NCBI GenBank assembly: GCA_040879625.1
Contig: JBBDJZ010000020.1
Location: 1 to 32,813 of the forward strand
Length of the DNA: 32,813 nucleotides
Reading direction: 5' to 3'
Source: Minisyncoccota bacterium
GTDB taxonomy: Bacteria > Patescibacteriota > Minisyncoccia > Phycocordibacterales > JAXHMZ01
Shown here: one piece after another, positions 24,107 to 32,086 of the stretch
Numbering within the stretch: position 1 is the first letter of the stretch
Layout of the letters: each line of letters begins with the position of its first letter
Position numbers and translations under genes: made by a program
The notes under the pieces: generated by a model
What the model was told of the DNA's origin: nothing
Seen by the model: only the letters and a program-made list of their open reading frames with translations
Database searches by the model: none

Positions 24107-24140
24107 AGATGTTGGCTTTTTGGCTGTGGAAAACTACAGA

Positions 24141-24149
24141 TGGTATACT
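24141..24149 (+). promoter_or_regulatory. Extended -10 element TGGTATACT, 7 nt upstream of the dnaE ATG (leaderless-type)
   Basis: TGGTATACT-GTGTGCA-ATG(24157). This is the identical 9-mer seen at the rpoB and helicase promoters. No good -35 is present. Confidence 0.5.
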
Positions 24150-24156
24150 GTGTGCA

Positions 24157-27100
24157 ATGTCGAAAAAAGTAGAGTTTATTCACTTGCATACGCACTCTCA
24201 CTATTCACTCCTCGACGGACTTTCAAAAATTCCTGATCTTATAAAAAAGGCGAAAGAATATGGCATGAACGCCCTTAGCCTTACCGACCACGGAAGCATG
24301 TATGGTGCAATTGAGTTCTATAAAGCATGCAAGGCAGCTGACATTAAACCAATTATTGGCGTCGAGGCATACGTTGCCGAGAGAAGTCGCTTTGATAAAG
24401 AGCCCGGAATAGATGACAAACGATATCACCTTACTCTTTTAAGTAGAAACAACGAAGGATATAAGAATCTCCTTAAGCTTGTTTCGAAGGCTGCGCTTGA
24501 AGGGTTTTATTATAAGCCCCGAATTGACGAGGATCTTTTGCGCGAACACGCGGGTGGGCTTATCTGTCTTACTGGTTGTCCCTCGGGCAAGTTCACCCAA
24601 CTTTTACGCCAGGGCTCAAAAGAAGGAGCCCGCAAACTTCTTCAGTTCTATATAGATACCTTTGGAAAAGAATATGTGTTTGTTGAAGTAATGAAACACG
24701 ATGAAGTGGACTGGTATCCCGCACTTTTGCCAGACATTATTTCTCTTGCAAAGGAGTTTGAGTTACCTGTTGTTGCTACGTGGGATTCTCACTACATCTC
24801 GAAAGAGGACAAAGAAGCTCACAACACGCTTCTTCACATCAATACCAATAACAAAAACTTTACGCTTGATGGCGACTACTCATTCATTTCCCCACAGATT
24901 GCACAAGAAATATATAAAGATATTCCAGAGGCTGTCGCAAATACTCAAAAAGTTGCAGACCTCGTCAATGTAGAACTTGAACTTGGTACGTGGACATTTC
25001 CTCGTTTTGACCTTCCAGATAACAAATCAGCTGATACGGTACTCCGTGAACTTGCTTACGCTGGTTTTGAAGCACGAAACATCCCAAAAACTGACGAGTA
25101 TACCACTCGACTAGAATACGAACTTGAAATTATTAAAAATAAGGGTTTTTCAATTTACTTACTCATTGTTGCTGATCTTCTTCGGTTTGCTCGCGAGAAT
25201 GACATTTTTTCAACAATTAGAGGTTCGGTTGCGGGTTCTCTTACCACCTACCTCACCGGTATTACTCGAGTGAACCCTATCGAATACAAACTTCCTTTCG
25301 AACGTTTCTTAAATCCAGAGCGACCCTCAGCACCTGATATCGATATGGATTATGCCGATAATCGACGTGACGAAGTAATTGCCTATGCGCGAGAAAAATA
25401 TGGCGCAGGAAAAGTTGCTCAAATTGGTACCTTTGGAACAATGGCGGCTCGAGGTGCCGTACGTGATGTCGCACGAGCGCTTGGATATCCGTATGGTACA
25501 GGCGATAAGATAGCAAAACTTATACCGATTGGTTCTCAGGGTTTTCCTATGACAATAGATCGTGCGCTTGATATTGAAGCTGACCTTAAAAAAATGTACA
25601 CAGAAGATACGGAGGTGCAGGAAATTATAAACTTAGCGCGAAAAATAGAAGGTTCTGCTCGACACATTTCAGTGCACGCAGCGGGCGTGGTGATTTCTCC
25701 TACGGACGTTACCGATTATGTACCGGTACAGGTTGATCCAAAGGCAGGAAAAACAATTACTCAGTTTGATATGCACGCGGTTGAAGACGCGGGTCTTATT
25801 AAGTTCGACTTTTTGGGACTAAAAAACCTTGCAATTCTTTCACGGGTTATAAAAATAGTACATCGTACTCAGAAGATTGACGTTGATATAGAAGACATAC
25901 CTCTTGATGATAGAAAAACGTTTGAAATGCTTGCGCGAGGTGAAACCAGCGGTCTCTTCCAGCTGAATGGCTCCGGGATGACGCGCTTCTTGAAAGATTT
26001 GAAGCCTTCAACCATTCTTGATGTTAACGCAATGGTTGCTCTGTATCGACCAGGACCAATGGAAACAATACCGAGCTACATTGAACGCAAACACAACCCG
26101 AAACTTATCAAGTATCTTGATCCTCGGATGGAAGAGATACTCAATCAATCTTTTGGGGTTATCACCTACCAAGACGACGTGCTTATGATTGCAATAAAAC
26201 TTGCTGGATATTCGTGGCTTGAGGCTGACAAACTGCGAAAAGCTATGGGTAAAAAAATACCAGCAGAGATGGAGGCACAAAAAAAGAAACTTCTCGATGG
26301 ACTGATAGAGCACGGTATGGCAAAAAAGCAGTCGGAAGAGCTGTGGGCTCTTATTGAACCTTTTGCCGCATATGGATTTAACAAAGCGCACGCAGCAAGC
26401 TACGGGCGCGTGGCTTATCAAACCGCCTACATGAAGGCAAACTTTCCAGTTGAATACATGGCTGCCGTATTAACGGCCGATTCGGGTGAGGTAGAAAAAA
26501 TAGCTGAAATTATTACCGAGTGTAAGAGAATGGGTATAAACGTACTTCCTCCAGATATTAATGAAAGCTTTGCCGATTTCACCGTCGTCGACGAAGAAAG
26601 TGACGGAGTTTCAGAGCAAAAAATTCGCTTCGGCCTTACGTCCATAAAAAACTTTGGAACAGCAATTACTGATTCAATCGTTTTAGAACGCAAAGACAAT
26701 GGACACTTTACTTCCCTATCAAACTTTTTATCACGCGTACAAGATAGAAATATAAACAAAAAATCTTTGGAATCACTGATTAAAAGTGGCGCTCTCGACT
26801 CTCTAGAAGAGCGGGCGGTATGTCTTAAGAATTTGGACTTCTTACTTGCTTTTGCGAAGGAAGCACGAACAGAGGCCGGGCAAGATTCACTGTTTTCACT
26901 CCTTGACCAAACGACGACCGACGAACTAACGCTTGAAAAAGCAGACCCGATAGAAGACAAAGTCCGCCTGGCTTGGGAGAAGGAACTTCTAGGTCTCTAC
27001 GTCTCGGGGCATCCACTAGAAGCATTCAAGCACGAGCTCGAGTTTAGAAAAATAACAATCAATGAAATAAAAGAGAAAGCAAAGAATAATTCAACCGTAA

Positions 27101-27381
27101 CACTGTGTGGAATTATTGAGGAAGTGAAAGAAATTCTTACAAAAAAAGGAGAAAAAATGGCTTTTGTAAAGATTGCAGATTTTGAAGGATCGCTTGAGCT
27201 GGTTGTTTTCCCCGATACACTTAAAAGGCTTGCGCCTTTTTTCCAGCTCGAACAATGCCTTTGCGTATCAGGTACGTTTTCTATGAGAAATGGAGAACCA
27301 AGTGTTCTTATTGAAAAAGCAAGATTGCTTAAACGCAAAAAAGAAGAGCCTGCAAGAGCGGATGAGCTACAATCGAAATAA
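24157..27381 (+). CDS. dnaE: DNA polymerase III alpha subunit
   Basis: PHP domain FIHLHTHSHYSLLDG, with palm/fingers motifs (PDIDMDY, GTFGTMAARGA, HAAGVVIS, FDFLGLKNL, KAHAASY) and a C-terminal OB fold. ATG 24157 (MSKKVEFIHLH) is preferred over the listed ATG 24109. Confidence 0.95.
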   Translation: MSKKVEFIHLHTHSHYSLLDGLSKIPDLIKKAKEYGMNALSLTDHGSMYGAIEFYKACKAADIKPIIGVEAYVAERSRFDKEPGIDDKRYHLTLLSRNNEGYKNLLKLVSKAALEGFYYKPRIDEDLLREHAGGLICLTGCPSGKFTQLLRQGSKEGARKLLQFYIDTFGKEYVFVEVMKHDEVDWYPALLPDIISLAKEFELPVVATWDSHYISKEDKEAHNTLLHINTNNKNFTLDGDYSFISPQIAQEIYKDIPEAVANTQKVADLVNVELELGTWTFPRFDLPDNKSADTVLRELAYAGFEARNIPKTDEYTTRLEYELEIIKNKGFSIYLLIVADLLRFARENDIFSTIRGSVAGSLTTYLTGITRVNPIEYKLPFERFLNPERPSAPDIDMDYADNRRDEVIAYAREKYGAGKVAQIGTFGTMAARGAVRDVARALGYPYGTGDKIAKLIPIGSQGFPMTIDRALDIEADLKKMYTEDTEVQEIINLARKIEGSARHISVHAAGVVISPTDVTDYVPVQVDPKAGKTITQFDMHAVEDAGLIKFDFLGLKNLAILSRVIKIVHRTQKIDVDIEDIPLDDRKTFEMLARGETSGLFQLNGSGMTRFLKDLKPSTILDVNAMVALYRPGPMETIPSYIERKHNPKLIKYLDPRMEEILNQSFGVITYQDDVLMIAIKLAGYSWLEADKLRKAMGKKIPAEMEAQKKKLLDGLIEHGMAKKQSEELWALIEPFAAYGFNKAHAASYGRVAYQTAYMKANFPVEYMAAVLTADSGEVEKIAEIITECKRMGINVLPPDINESFADFTVVDEESDGVSEQKIRFGLTSIKNFGTAITDSIVLERKDNGHFTSLSNFLSRVQDRNINKKSLESLIKSGALDSLEERAVCLKNLDFLLAFAKEARTEAGQDSLFSLLDQTTTDELTLEKADPIEDKVRLAWEKELLGLYVSGHPLEAFKHELEFRKITINEIKEKAKNNSTVTLCGIIEEVKEILTKKGEKMAFVKIADFEGSLELVVFPDTLKRLAPFFQLEQCLCVSGTFSMRNGEPSVLIEKARLLKRKKEEPARADELQSK

Positions 27382-29183: not shown

Positions 29184-29184
29184 C

Positions 29185-29214
29185 AAAAAAAGCCAGCATC
29201 ATGCTGGCTTTTTT
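29185..29214. terminator. Bidirectional intrinsic terminator between thrS and the surface-protein gene
   Basis: A7 - GCCAGCA tca TGCTGGC (29192-29208) - T6. The perfect 7-bp GC-rich stem is flanked by A and T runs and lies between convergent genes. Confidence 0.8.
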
Positions 29215-29229
29215 AATTAGATTGTTTCT

Positions 29230-30165
29230 TTATGCAAGAATTTCTAAGATTCGTTCATTGTTGATTTTCACAAATCCATCTTCGCGAGGATAGGTAGCTT
29301 TTGCTCCATCTATAACTGTTGAGAGAAGCTCTAGAGAAGGACCTCCTAGTGCTTGAGACTTTGTCACAACCGCCTTTAATGCATCTTCAGAAAAGAGAAC
29401 CTTTTCTTCATGGGCATGTGAGCGAAGGATTTGTAATTCCTCAGAATCTAGTATTATTACCTCTTCTTCTTCAACAAACGTGTCTCCAAAAAATGGTGTC
29501 TCAACAGAATCAGCGGGAACTCCGGACTGTGGAGCATAGGCCGTAGCGGTGCTTTTAACAAAGACGCTTTTAATCTGTTCTTTTCTTGCTGGATTTAGAA
29601 GAGCAAAACCAAGCGCTCCTGCCCAAAGAGTAAGCGCAAGTCCAATAAGTGAGAGTCGAAGTACGTCCCCTGCTCCTGTATAAGGAATTTCGGTAAGATA
29701 CACGTAGCCTTTTTCGTCATTTGGAACGAATCTTGTTTCAAGTGTTACGTTATGATCATTTCGAAGAGTACCCGATCCTGATTCAGCTCGTTTTTCTCGG
29801 ACAACAATGCGCAACGCAACGGTGTCTTCACTACAGTCGTTTGAAACTATTAGTTCAACGCGATATGTTCCGCTGTCTTCTATCCGCCCGCTCAGTACTC
29901 CCTTATCTTCATCAAAACTGAGACCACGAGGGAGATACTTAACGTCATAGGTATCAACATCTCCGCCCTTAGTTTCTATTTCGTACTCAAAACGTTCATT
30001 TTCATTGACATAGACACGTGTTTCGTCGAGAACGATAGTAACATCCTCACATCGTTCATTACGTGTTGCACCATTCACTTCACCTGGAAGCACGCTGGTA
30101 GTGAAAGCAAGCACAGCAAATGAAAGTGCAAGAATTCTAGTTGTTTGTTTTAGTAAGCTATTCAT
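29230..30165 (-). CDS. Secreted Ig-like (He_PIG-type) surface protein with an internal IPYTG sorting-signal-like motif, TM helix and 117-aa cytoplasmic tail
   Basis: Signal peptide MNSLLKQTTRILALSFAVLAFTTSVLPGEVNG, then the putative Ig motif YLPRGLSFDEDKGVLSGRIEDSGTYRVELIV. IPYTG occupies res 160-164 (nt 29674-29688), followed by the hydrophobic stretch VLRLSLIGLALTLWAGALGFALL and NPARKEQIK. An acidic, helical tail runs to res 311. Confidence 0.7.
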   Translation of the reverse strand: MNSLLKQTTRILALSFAVLAFTTSVLPGEVNGATRNERCEDVTIVLDETRVYVNENERFEYEIETKGGDVDTYDVKYLPRGLSFDEDKGVLSGRIEDSGTYRVELIVSNDCSEDTVALRIVVREKRAESGSGTLRNDHNVTLETRFVPNDEKGYVYLTEIPYTGAGDVLRLSLIGLALTLWAGALGFALLNPARKEQIKSVFVKSTATAYAPQSGVPADSVETPFFGDTFVEEEEVIILDSEELQILRSHAHEEKVLFSEDALKAVVTKSQALGGPSLELLSTVIDGAKATYPREDGFVKINNERILEILA

Positions 30166-30188: not shown

Positions 30189-30217
30189 ATTATATAGTGT
30201 TTTATTACAGATGTCAA
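30189..30217 (-). promoter_or_regulatory. Perfect-consensus sigma-70 promoter for the surface-protein gene
   Basis: The minus strand reads TTGACA (30212-30217), a 17-nt spacer, then TATAAT (30189-30194). The -35 box begins 2 nt after the sortase stop codon, and the -10 box lies 23 nt before the ATG. Confidence 0.7.
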
Positions 30218-30219
30218 TA

Positions 30220-30876
30220 CTAGCGAGCGGTGTCATTCACGAGCTCAGCCTGTATGACATATCTATCTTCTTTGGCACCAAATGAGTTGCACGTAGCAAG
30301 AGTGATAGTTGGCTTCTCTGCTCCAAAATTAACCCGAACCTCGCTTTCTTTTGCGAGCACATTAGAAGTCACTCGGTAGATAAAGCGATTACCATCTACA
30401 TACAGTTCAACGGTGTCTCCAATGCGTAAATCTTTAATGCGATTAAAGACCCTAAAATTTTCATTTCTTACGATTGGTAGAAAGGAGCTATGGCCAAAGA
30501 AGAGCAAGTTTGCATCTTCATGGAGGTAACCAGATCCTGGATAGTAGACAACGCCATCAAGAAGTGCAGTATCAAGAACGGCATAATCACGTGAACGTGG
30601 ATTGACTATTGTTGCATCAAGTCCAATTGAAGGAGCAACCAAGCGGTCTGGTATTGGGGGTGCACTGTTTTCTGCTTCCTTTTTAACAGGTTTTTCGAAT
30701 TCCACAAGGCCCTGAGATTGCGTTACGCTCTTTGCCTCTGCCATAACTGCTGAGACAGAGATAAACACGGGTGCATAGAGAGCACAAAATAATGTTGCAA
30801 CAGAAAGCAATGATACCGCTAATCCGGCAGTAAATGGGCCTTCCGTGTCTATTTTTTCTTTCTCAGTCATTGACAT
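30220..30876 (-). CDS. Sortase-family cysteine transpeptidase, N-terminally membrane anchored
   Basis: TM segment FTAGLAVSLLSVATLFCALYAPVFISVSAV. Catalytic triad context: LLFFGHSS (His129), ITLATCNSFG (TLxTC, Cys196), EDRYVIQAEL (Arg205). Also the typical L.APSIGLDATIV strand. Confidence 0.88.
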   Translation of the reverse strand: MSMTEKEKIDTEGPFTAGLAVSLLSVATLFCALYAPVFISVSAVMAEAKSVTQSQGLVEFEKPVKKEAENSAPPIPDRLVAPSIGLDATIVNPRSRDYAVLDTALLDGVVYYPGSGYLHEDANLLFFGHSSFLPIVRNENFRVFNRIKDLRIGDTVELYVDGNRFIYRVTSNVLAKESEVRVNFGAEKPTITLATCNSFGAKEDRYVIQAELVNDTAR

Positions 30877-30904
30877 ATCAGATTTTCAATATATAATCCG
30901 CATT

Positions 30905-31018: not shown

Positions 31019-32086
31019 ATGAACAACGAAGAAAGAACGACACAAATGAGTGAGGAGGAGCGATCTTCCGAAGAACGGCGACTGGAGAACGATGAACCGG
31101 GTCGTCCTATTTGGATTACCATTCTTGCTGTTGCAGGAATACTTGCTGTTATTTTTGCACTTGGCATCAGCGTGTTTCAGCTTGCAACACGAGGGAGCGA
31201 CCGAGTTTCTGAAATTACAGCTGGACTCGGTGGCCTTTTCCAAAGAAGTGAGAGAATCGTTCTCAGAGTAGACAAATCTACGGTTAACTCGGAAGACGAG
31301 GTTACTATTTTTCTTGAACACCGCAACAAAGACAGGGGCGAAAATGGTATCTATACTGTTCAAATTGATTGCGAAGAAGAAGTAACGGCTCGCCTAAACG
31401 ACACTCTAGTTGCTTGCAACGAAGAGATTGAGTTGGGAAAAGAAACACCTGAATCCTTTACGGTCACACTTCAAGCAGAGAGCGAGCGCTATACTGACAT
31501 ACCCGTTATTGTTCGCTACGTGGGAGGAGATGAAGTTGTCGAGACAGACACACTTCTTACTGTGGTAAACACCGACATTGCGTCGACACCAACCAAAGAT
31601 GAAGATGCAAACGAAGATTCAGATGAAAAAACAGTAACAGACGCAGAAGATTCAGAAAAAATAACAACACCTCAGTACATAACCGTAAAACGATACGGCG
31701 GTAGGTACTCTGATCCAAATGGTATAGCGGATTTACGCGTTAGTATTACAAACACGGGCATTATTAGGAACGGAGACTTCAGAGAACGAGATGAAGTAAG
31801 CGAAAATGAACGCGCTGCTCTTTCGTTTACAGTCAGCAACGCAGGTACTAAAGAAACAGGGACGTGGTACTTTAGTGCTCTACTTCCAACCGGTGAAACG
31901 TACTACTTTAAATCCGATACTCAACAGAACCTACTTCCAGGAGATAGAATTGAGTATATTCTCGCTTTTGACGATATCGAAGGTAGGGGGGATACGAAGC
32001 TCTACGTGTATGCTGATCCGGTTAACTCTTTGGCGGAACTTTCTGAGATTAACAACATCGGGGAAGCGGTCTTCGACATCCGATAG
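31019..32086 (+). CDS. N-terminally membrane-anchored surface protein with beta-sandwich domain and C-terminal CARDB-like domain
   Basis: An acidic cytoplasmic N-terminus is followed by the TM segment IWITILAVAGILAVIFALGISVF and an ectodomain with a Cys pair (C118, C133). An acidic linker follows, then CARDB-like DLRVSITNTG, FTVSNAGTKETG and YVYADPVNSLAELSEINNIGE. The start is uncertain (ATG 31019 or 31046). Confidence 0.7.
   Translation: MNNEERTTQMSEEERSSEERRLENDEPGRPIWITILAVAGILAVIFALGISVFQLATRGSDRVSEITAGLGGLFQRSERIVLRVDKSTVNSEDEVTIFLEHRNKDRGENGIYTVQIDCEEEVTARLNDTLVACNEEIELGKETPESFTVTLQAESERYTDIPVIVRYVGGDEVVETDTLLTVVNTDIASTPTKDEDANEDSDEKTVTDAEDSEKITTPQYITVKRYGGRYSDPNGIADLRVSITNTGIIRNGDFRERDEVSENERAALSFTVSNAGTKETGTWYFSALLPTGETYYFKSDTQQNLLPGDRIEYILAFDDIEGRGDTKLYVYADPVNSLAELSEINNIGEAVFDIR

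Follow-up and report, generated by a model that had tools for sequence, protein, structure and literature searches.

A probable mid-protein PYTG sorting signal followed by a conserved cytoplasmic domain in sortase-linked surface proteins of Patescibacteria

Introduction

Must a sortase substrate end at its sorting signal? The question is raised by a gene in a 32,813-nt stretch of DNA (contig JBBDJZ010000020.1, assembly GCA_040879625.1) from a Minisyncoccota bacterium of the Patescibacteria; the whole stretch is called the window here. The gene encodes a predicted surface-protein precursor, in which a sortase-type sorting signal is followed by a long cytoplasmic part, and it lies beside a sortase gene. 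The arrangement was pointed out in an earlier reading of the letters (the original prediction). The comparisons described below suggest that this protein is probably a genuine substrate of the adjacent sortase, and that its C-terminal cleavage product is itself functional.

The ultra-small Patescibacteria spend their lives on host cells to which they attach, and little is understood of the proteins at their surface. A preprint estimates that they make up 15–50% of bacterial species (bioRxiv 10.64898/2026.03.03.709456). More than half of the genomes of the candidate phyla radiation (CPR) encode a sortase (PMC6744442), and CPR surface proteins bear 'sortase motifs' (PMC5220378). The CPR literature searched notes only the existence of these two, and a literature search found no paper linking VPYTG, IPYTG, LPYTG or PYTGF to a sortase.

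Results

A predicted sorting signal in the middle of the protein

The protein (Table 1) starts with a hydropathy peak at residues 8–30 followed by a VNG|A site, as read from the sequence and a Kyte-Doolittle plot. Pfam placed a He_PIG domain (PF05345) on residues 48–110, and the Foldseek matches of the ectodomain were Ig, Rib and SraP-type domains. The pentapeptide IPYTG occupies residues 160–164 (nt 29674–29688), and AGD (residues 165–167) joins it to the hydrophobic helix. Kyte-Doolittle averages over 19-mers exceeded 1.5 at residues 8–12 and 167–174 only, reaching 1.97 in the helix at 168–190. The tripartite signal described originally (YVYLTE-IPYTG-AGD, a 23-residue helix and NPARKEQIK) was thus confirmed from the open reading frame (ORF) and its hydropathy.

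The tail behind this signal had been put at about 117 residues. The long tail is real, but that count began at residue 195; 112 residues (200–311), including a folded domain, follow NPARKEQIK, and 147 follow IPYTG. The tail contains an acidic run, VEEEEVIILDSEE, and a helix-rich C-terminal end.

The protein has the features of a cell-wall sorting signal, namely an LPXTG-like pentapeptide, a nearby hydrophobic helix, basic residues and linkage to a sortase. On the other hand, the signal is not at the extreme C-terminus, where the textbook places it. A candidate sortase substrate peptide spanning the motif is of the type YLTEIPYTGAGD. The view that IPYTG deviates from the class A–E consensus motifs did not really hold, as [VIL]PxTG falls within the LPXTG-like pattern; what is unusual is the fixed tyrosine and the conserved L-[ST]-Q ahead of it.

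The sortase gene is upstream, its stop codon 54 nt from the start codon of the target gene. The product scored 67 bits against PF04203 (cut-off 26.6), and aligned with six solved sortases. The best of these was 4d70, annotated only as a 'sortase family protein' (E=5e-5), with which the catalytic triad aligned as well. The intact His/Cys/Arg triad claimed for it, H129 (FFGHSS), C196 (LATCNS) and R205 (DRYVIQA), was kept in 98–100% of 42 Patescibacterial homologues.

The enzyme fell far under all the NCBIfam class A–F cut-offs; classes D (37.6 bits against a cut-off of 165) and E (29.8 against 160) scored best, not class C (26.3 against 160), and TIGR01076 gave 29.5 against 39.35. These scores point to an unclassified Patescibacterial clade of sortases.

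Ten close homologues, with 43–80% identity, retain the entire architecture; the nearest named source, from a word-indexed search, is a metagenome-assembled genome (MAG) of Candidatus Campbellbacteria. Across all 11 close homologues compared, the 12-mer GYVYLT[EDQ]IPYTG varied only at the bracketed position, a conservation beyond what chance would give. Some of the helix (W181) was invariant as well, and so was much of the C-terminal domain (EELQxLR, LFSE, LGG and KATYPRE-G); the signal peptide, stalk and linker drifted. In all five close homologues examined by contig, the sortase was directly upstream, within a shared block of gyrB, a divergent CARDB-like gene, sortase, target, convergent thrS and dnaE.

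The motif is nearly invariant in a large family

An HMMER profile of residues 145–311 was searched exhaustively against 1.84 billion representative proteins (E≤1e-3), and 368 representative clusters were found to carry the module of the target. A word-indexed homology search with a diverse alignment gave 28 proteins, far below this number.

Among the best 150 of the 368 clusters, 137 had [VIL]PYTG directly ahead of the hydrophobic helix; the variants in these 150 were VPYTG (79), IPYTG (38) and LPYTG (12). The P, T and G were invariant in the family sequences, with tyrosine present in 146 of 149, and V, I or L at the first position in 145 of 149. The logo reads [IV]-x-L-[ST]-Q-[VIL]-P-Y-T-G-[FAV], with F-[EDG]-A-G also conserved downstream. 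Loss of the motif among homologues had been named in advance as evidence against a sorting signal; the motif was kept in every homologue with an ectodomain.

The ectodomains themselves varied: at one extreme stood a single Ig domain, and at the other PKD, DUF11 and Ig repeats that together exceed 1,600 residues. About half of the members stop at a 70-residue C-terminal domain, like the window protein, and the remainder add 115–209 residues. When the target and eight relatives were scanned, neither Pfam nor NCBIfam had a match for the motif, the helix, the C-terminal domain or the additional domain. The statement that no sortase substrate of this architecture had been described was upheld in part: no matching paper or family model was found, but with 368 clusters the protein is not singular.

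Conservation of this kind might also serve a protein that is never cut. The target could be a type-I receptor or adhesin that remains whole, with x-L-S-Q-[VI]-P-Y-T-G acting as a juxtamembrane structural or docking element (for the wall or an S-layer, for example), and its place beside the sortase could be a matter of inherited synteny or of a partnership that involves no catalysis. The 12 conserved residues and the F-[EDG]-A-G after them, which go beyond typical LPXTG signals, would fit such a use, and so would a tyrosine fixed at the X position, which is normally free. The motif nevertheless fits [LIV]PxTG exactly, and its spacing from the helix is the canonical one. We consider an uncleaved receptor unlikely on this and the evidence below.

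Siblings with ordinary C-terminal signals

Family members differed widely in the length of the tail past the motif, which was anywhere between 33 and 455 residues. At the short end were canonical siblings, which have the same motif-plus-helix and stop 33–48 residues past the motif. The protein at locus L085 ends ...VPYTGFDAGPTLTFIFYALLGLWALFIAYTLVLKKKLS*, an ordinary C-terminal sorting signal, and identical short tails were found in two independent MAGs (L063 and L077). These three, and the short-tailed protein at L054, all had a sortase upstream.

The motif-plus-helix subtype of these short-tailed proteins, VPYTGF[DE]AGP...LVxKK, also runs into the C-terminal domain of the target in other members (P0022, P0023 and P0037). 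This indicated that the internal signals are homologous elaborations of ordinary C-terminal ones, and it is the strongest argument that the internal signals are read by the sortase. For an uncleaved receptor, it is awkward that the same motif belongs to a textbook C-terminal signal in these siblings, beside the same sortase family.

A second kind of cytoplasmic extension on the same signal was observed in a Kaiserbacteria-type subfamily (IPYTGFDFGPVGNAMYW...AGAYLLVYY; loci L016, L024, L042–L044, L050, L064, L070, L075, L083, L100 and others). Its tails of 60–130 residues do not contain the C-terminal domain of the target, and end in a conserved T-x-D-[SA]-M...G-x-[AM]-P-R-I-[VI]-I-x-R.

Linked sortases are nearly always upstream in the same orientation

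A scan of one genome per species with a degenerate DNA pattern for L[ST]Q[IV]PYTGF gave at least 120 loci. The counts in this section are among the loci listed. Almost all of them were Patescibacteria (Paceibacterota, Kaiserbacteria, Nomurabacteria and others). A hidden Markov model of the window sortase was then searched against the 113 listed loci that had a motif-plus-helix ORF.

A sortase homologue was present within the same 8-kb block in 39 of the 113. Pairs of gene and sortase numbered 39 with the sortase upstream on the same strand, 2 with it downstream on the same strand and 0 with it on the opposite strand. The fraction with an upstream sortase grew with the upstream DNA available, from 25 of 38 at 3 kb or more to 17 of 21 at 4 kb or more and 8 of 9 at 5 kb or more; the downstream fraction was 2 of 73 at 3 kb or more (Fisher p=3e-13). 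The linked sortases were 33–64% identical to the window sortase (median 39%). A mid-protein motif with a helix and a folded intracellular domain is, as far as sequence comparison can tell, a common layout of sortase-linked proteins in Patescibacteria.

Neighbouring genes were shared as well: thrS occurred in 26 loci, and a CARDB-like gene stood divergently beside the sortase in 25 of the 40 sortase loci. That much of the adjacency falls within one conserved syntenic block is a further point for an uncleaved receptor that merely inherited its neighbour. The strictly polar linkage, on the other hand, persists down to 33% sortase identity and despite swaps of the ectodomain, which speaks against it.

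Tandem PYTG genes were present at five loci (L014, L032, L072, L110 and L118). They lend something to another explanation, in which the sortase does process the motif and the acceptor is not peptidoglycan; the ectodomain could be polymerised in a pilus-like way, ligated to an S-layer or to the CARDB-like neighbour, or let go by hydrolysis, with the enzyme as a sheddase. A CARDB-like surface protein is a constant neighbour, and the pilins on which class C sortases act typically bear [IV]PxTG motifs. The structure of the CPR envelope is, in addition, poorly known (PMC5220378).

Set against this are the single substrate gene at the window locus, the class scores of its sortase (best for D and E, not C), and the CARDB-like protein that stays where the sortase has been lost (see below); neither a pilin-motif lysine nor an isopeptide domain was found. 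We judge an acceptor other than the wall quite improbable.

Several side observations concern these loci. Heterogeneous small secreted Cys-containing proteins (about 130–220 residues) are often encoded between the sortase and the PYTG gene (L037, L038, L056, L066, L067, L073, L085, L106 and L108), and account for the usual gap of 0.8–2 kb there. They were considered as a conserved component and rejected because of their heterogeneity. Locus L037, labelled as a MAG of Patiriisocius sp. (Flavobacteriia, Bacteroidota), carries a Patescibacterial-type sortase and PYTG protein, and its contig is probably mis-binned. The matches in Singulisphaera (L033), Bacteroidetes (L041) and Burkholderiales (L076) had no motif-plus-helix ORF and fit the chance matches expected of the pattern.

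The cytoplasmic domain resembles an AAA+ lid

Foldseek with the full-length model matched Ig domains only, so residues 241–311 were modelled alone by AlphaFold2 (AF2) with 34 diverse sequences. The model had a predicted local distance difference test score (pLDDT) of 97.9 and a predicted template modelling (TM) score of 0.85, with the order helix, strand, helix, helix, strand, helix. The folded C-terminal domain supposed in the original prediction was thus borne out.

Foldseek matches of this model in the Protein Data Bank (PDB) were mostly AAA+ lid domains, with TM scores of 0.63–0.74 and root-mean-square deviations (rmsd) of 2.0–2.7 Å. RuvB (1hqc, 3pfi and 8efv) gave TM scores of 0.70–0.74, rmsd of 2.0–2.7 Å and probabilities of 0.9–0.97. 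RFC, Orc1/Cdc6, ClpX, the Lon SSD and CbbX were also matched, as were the N-terminal domains of the Pol epsilon and Pol alpha B subunits, which we take to be lid-like. The shortness of the domain kept the Foldseek E-values at just 0.4–3. When the PDB was searched with a profile of the domain sequence, the lid regions of RFC5 and RFC4 came first (E=0.02–0.5); a sequence search of the PDB with another alignment gave noise only.

The domain shares its fold and order of elements with the lids of RuvB, RFC/clamp-loader subunits and Orc1/Cdc6, and with the Pol alpha and epsilon B-subunit domains. It differs from AAA+ lids in being membrane-tethered, in its own signature Y-P-R-E-D-G-[WFY], and in the absence of an ATPase core and of a conserved sensor-2 arginine: none of the 150 representatives had a core, and the segment equivalent to sensor 2 was not conserved. 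No Pfam AAA_lid model matched the target, and the likeness stands at Foldseek E-values above 0.1 and sequence E-values of 0.02 or weaker. We interpreted the model as an orphan AAA+-lid-like domain with a RuvB/RFC-like fold; this is a similarity of fold, with homology not established.

Within the target protein, the lid-like domain was among the most conserved parts, with A-H, L-x-S and A-K-x-x-Y-P-R-E-D-G-[WFY] kept across sequences.

In the long forms (about 79 representatives in total, such as P0020, P0024, P0025, P0029, P0030, P0035 and P0040), an extra helical domain of 115–209 residues follows the lid, with F-x-F-L-R, L-D-x-x-Y-R-x-R-x-E-G and V-D-x-x-Y conserved. The holA model TIGR01128 matched one long-form relative weakly (E=0.004). 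A profile of lid plus extra domain against the PDB stayed at noise level; residues 200–262 of E. coli delta (1jqj) were colinear, at a non-significant E of about 0.8–0.9. A likeness of the long forms to the clamp-loader delta subunit (HolA) is offered as a lead only.

The predicted cleavage product exists as a separate gene

Three representative clusters (P0016, P0018 and P0019; 146–152 residues) consisted of the helix, linker and lid only. These stub genes occupy the same slot as the target gene, here with the order pheT, gyrB, CARDB-like (−), a spacer of about 270–310 nt, stub (+) and thrS (−); thrS was visible after the stub in L123, and the contigs of L127–L129 end just past the stub. The sortase, the signal peptide, the Ig domain and the PYTG motif were all absent from the stub loci, and tblastn detected no remnants of a sortase or ectodomain. 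The CARDB-like gene was kept beside the stubs where the sortase was gone.

The stubs were 48–51% identical to each other and 37–42% identical to residues 164–311 of the window protein. Their Met1 aligned exactly with G164, the new N-terminus predicted after a cut at T|G. Each stub (L123, L127 and L129) was preceded by a perfect TTGACA-17-TATAAT promoter, as is the target gene in the window. The possibility that the stubs are mis-called starts or pseudogene fragments was rejected, as they have no upstream remnants, have consensus promoters, and represent three lineages at about 50% identity.

These loci suggest that sortase, ectodomain and motif were lost together, and that selection has preserved the predicted C-terminal product in the form of a gene. 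Retention of the stubs without the surface part speaks for a helix-lid fragment that functions as a unit, and against a mere retention handle. By themselves, the stubs are no proof of cleavage; the support that their start at the G164 position and the genomic linkage lend to it is indirect.

They bear on an uncleaved receptor in two ways. A helix plus lid that works without a sortase would favour it, whereas the joint loss of sortase, ectodomain and motif counts against it, since a motif that serves the sortase should disappear along with it. Homologues without sortases had been put forward as evidence against the original prediction; the only ones found were these stubs, which also lack the motif, and the motif-bearing homologues were linked to a sortase both tightly and directionally.

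The tail might alternatively be an enlarged handle for retention, targeting or quality control, which takes the place of the short charged tail, does nothing else and is broken down once the protein has been cleaved. The charged tail of canonical substrates has retention of the precursor as its sole task; the continuous range of tail lengths (33 to 455 residues) and the poorly conserved linker would also be in line with this. A lid domain that is highly conserved and folds confidently is hard to reconcile with it, and so is the finding that three lineages (about 50% identity) keep the lid as an intact, promoter-driven gene when the partner to be retained is gone. We regard a functionless handle as most improbable.

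Features of the locus

The coordinates are collected in Table 1. The hairpin at 29184–29214, which terminates both the target gene and the convergent thrS, was found by folding and missed by a simple terminator scan. At its N-terminus, the CARDB-like protein has an acidic cytoplasmic tail and a single membrane helix; its gene is a conserved neighbour, and its membership in the sortase system is uncertain. A second perfect sigma-70-type promoter (30870–30897, +) faces this gene, in an overlap with the start codon of the sortase.

Within the window, the target was the only [LIV]PxTG-plus-helix protein found, and tRNA and Rfam scans of the window gave no matches. The dnaE ORF (24109–27381, +), as called, has 16 codons ahead of the conserved MSKKVEFIHLHTH; the second Met is probably the true start.

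Table 1. Coordinates of the target gene, its predicted parts and neighbouring features in the window, and of the stub genes within the loci named
Feature	Position (nt)	Strand	Remarks
Target gene, surface-protein precursor with internal sorting signal	29230–30165	−	311 aa
Predicted Sec signal peptide, about residues 1–32	30070–30165	−	Basic n-region, hydrophobic core, VNG|A; read from sequence
Ig-like ectodomain (He_PIG), residues 42–123	29797–30042	−	PF05345 E=6.9e-6; AF2 beta-sandwich, pLDDT 73–91
Disordered stalk, residues 124–152	29710–29796	−	pLDDT <50 (AF2); varies among homologues
Extended sorting motif GYVYLTE-IPYTG, residues 153–164	29674–29709	−	Predicted cut T163|G164
Transmembrane helix, 23 hydrophobic residues 168–190	29596–29664	−	Hydropathy; AF2 helix 165–190
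Basic juxtamembrane patch NPARKEQIK, residues 191–199	29569–29595	−	Net charge +3 after helix, −2 before
Acidic cytoplasmic linker, residues 200–240	29446–29568	−	Net charge −7; poorly conserved
Cytoplasmic orphan AAA+-lid-like domain, residues 241–311 (71 residues)	29233–29445	−	AF2, Foldseek, PDB profile
Bidirectional intrinsic terminator (A-run, GCCAGCA-TCA-TGCTGGC, T-run)	29184–29214	both	−19.1 kcal/mol, z=−5.35
Perfect sigma-70-type promoter TTGACA-17-TATAAT in 54-nt spacer	30189–30217	−	12/12 consensus match
Sortase, 218 aa, N-terminal membrane anchor and catalytic domain with H129, C196, R205	30220–30876	−	PF04203 E=1.7e-18
CARDB-like type-II membrane protein, divergent from sortase	31019–32086	+	PF07705
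Stub genes	L123 1402–1842; L127/L128 5001–5444; L129 5001–5459		

Discussion

The scheme that we favour, a genuine substrate with a functional remnant, would run as follows. The precursor would be exported via Sec by its N-terminal signal peptide and held as a type-I membrane protein by the helix at 168–190 and the basic patch. The sortase would cut IPYTG between T163 and G164, and move the Ig ectodomain and stalk onto the cell wall or another nucleophile. The product left, 148 residues from G164 to A311, would comprise a short external tip, the membrane helix, the acidic linker and the cytoplasmic lid-like domain. This would be no debris, but a functional membrane-tethered protein with its own role on the cytoplasmic face. 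Each precursor would thus give one ectodomain linked to the wall and one module on the cytoplasmic face, in 1:1 stoichiometry.

Several points weigh against this scheme. The whole case is entirely comparative genomics, from which we infer the cleavage itself, the acceptor, and the binding and role of the lid domain. The models PF00746 (Gram_pos_anchor) and TIGR01167 gave no match at E≤1 in the window protein or eight relatives, and a basic patch after the helix is expected in any type-I membrane protein. The scan pattern misses the LTEIPYTGA of the window itself, so that the genomes sampled by it are those of relatives only. Most sortase-linked loci share the thrS/CARDB-like synteny, which makes the adjacency counts phylogenetically non-independent, and these counts could partly reflect inherited gene order. 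The target gene has its own strong promoter, so co-transcription with the sortase is not required; this independent promoter would also suit an uncleaved receptor. Finally, the stubs fit equally well with a helix plus lid that works without any cleavage.

The signal resembles the canonical LPXTG signal of sortase A, C and F substrates (PF00746, TIGR01167) in the predicted signal peptide, the [LIV]-P-x-T-G, the helix of about 20 residues, the basic residues and the adjacent His/Cys/Arg sortase. It differs in being internal, in the tyrosine fixed at X, and in the conserved L-[ST]-Q and F-[EDG]-A-G. The hosts differ as well, Firmicutes and Actinobacteria for the canonical signal and Patescibacteria for the family described here.

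In work by Navarre and Schneewind (1994), S. aureus reportedly cleaved an engineered Seb-Cws-BlaZ fusion at its internal LPXTG, with the BlaZ fragment staying in the cytoplasm. This suggests that a large cytoplasmic extension does not in principle block sorting. In that fusion, as is predicted for the target, the sorting signal lies between an exported N-terminal and a cytoplasmic C-terminal domain. The fusion was artificial, whereas the arrangement in the target is natural, ancient and family-wide, with a conserved C-terminal domain.

A sortase remnant with a function of its own, which reports on the processing of the substrate, also has a precedent. In S. gordonii, the C-peptide, the membrane remnant of adhesins processed by sortase A, is sensed by the SGO_1180 two-component system (PMC11326707, PMC11502775). 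That remnant has about 30 residues (helix and charged tail) and acts via a histidine kinase, whereas the remnant of the target would carry a domain of 71 residues, and those of the long forms the lid and a further 120–200 residues. No kinase was evident near the target gene.

A wider reading may be put forward tentatively, and we think it rather doubtful. The sortase would act as a maturation protease that makes two functional proteins from one precursor. The first would be an ectodomain anchored in the wall, and the second a membrane-tethered orphan AAA+-lid protein, to which the long forms add the domain with a faint likeness to HolA. The cytoplasmic amount of the second product would report on, or match, surface display. 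This would amount to an enlarged form of C-peptide signalling across Patescibacteria, with the remnant kept as a free-standing gene in lineages without the surface part.

If this sortase clade is rigidly specific for [VIL]PYTG, it may also suit orthogonal protein ligation. The stub-only genes provide a natural experiment on the function of the cleaved C-terminal remnant. The CARDB-like gene, the sortase and the PYTG protein appear to form a core surface-display module with swappable ectodomains. If the scheme is true, predictors that require the motif at the C-terminus would miss most sortase substrates of Patescibacteria. Sorting signals are defined as C-terminal, and a large natural family with internal signals and conserved cytoplasmic domains would revise this rule.

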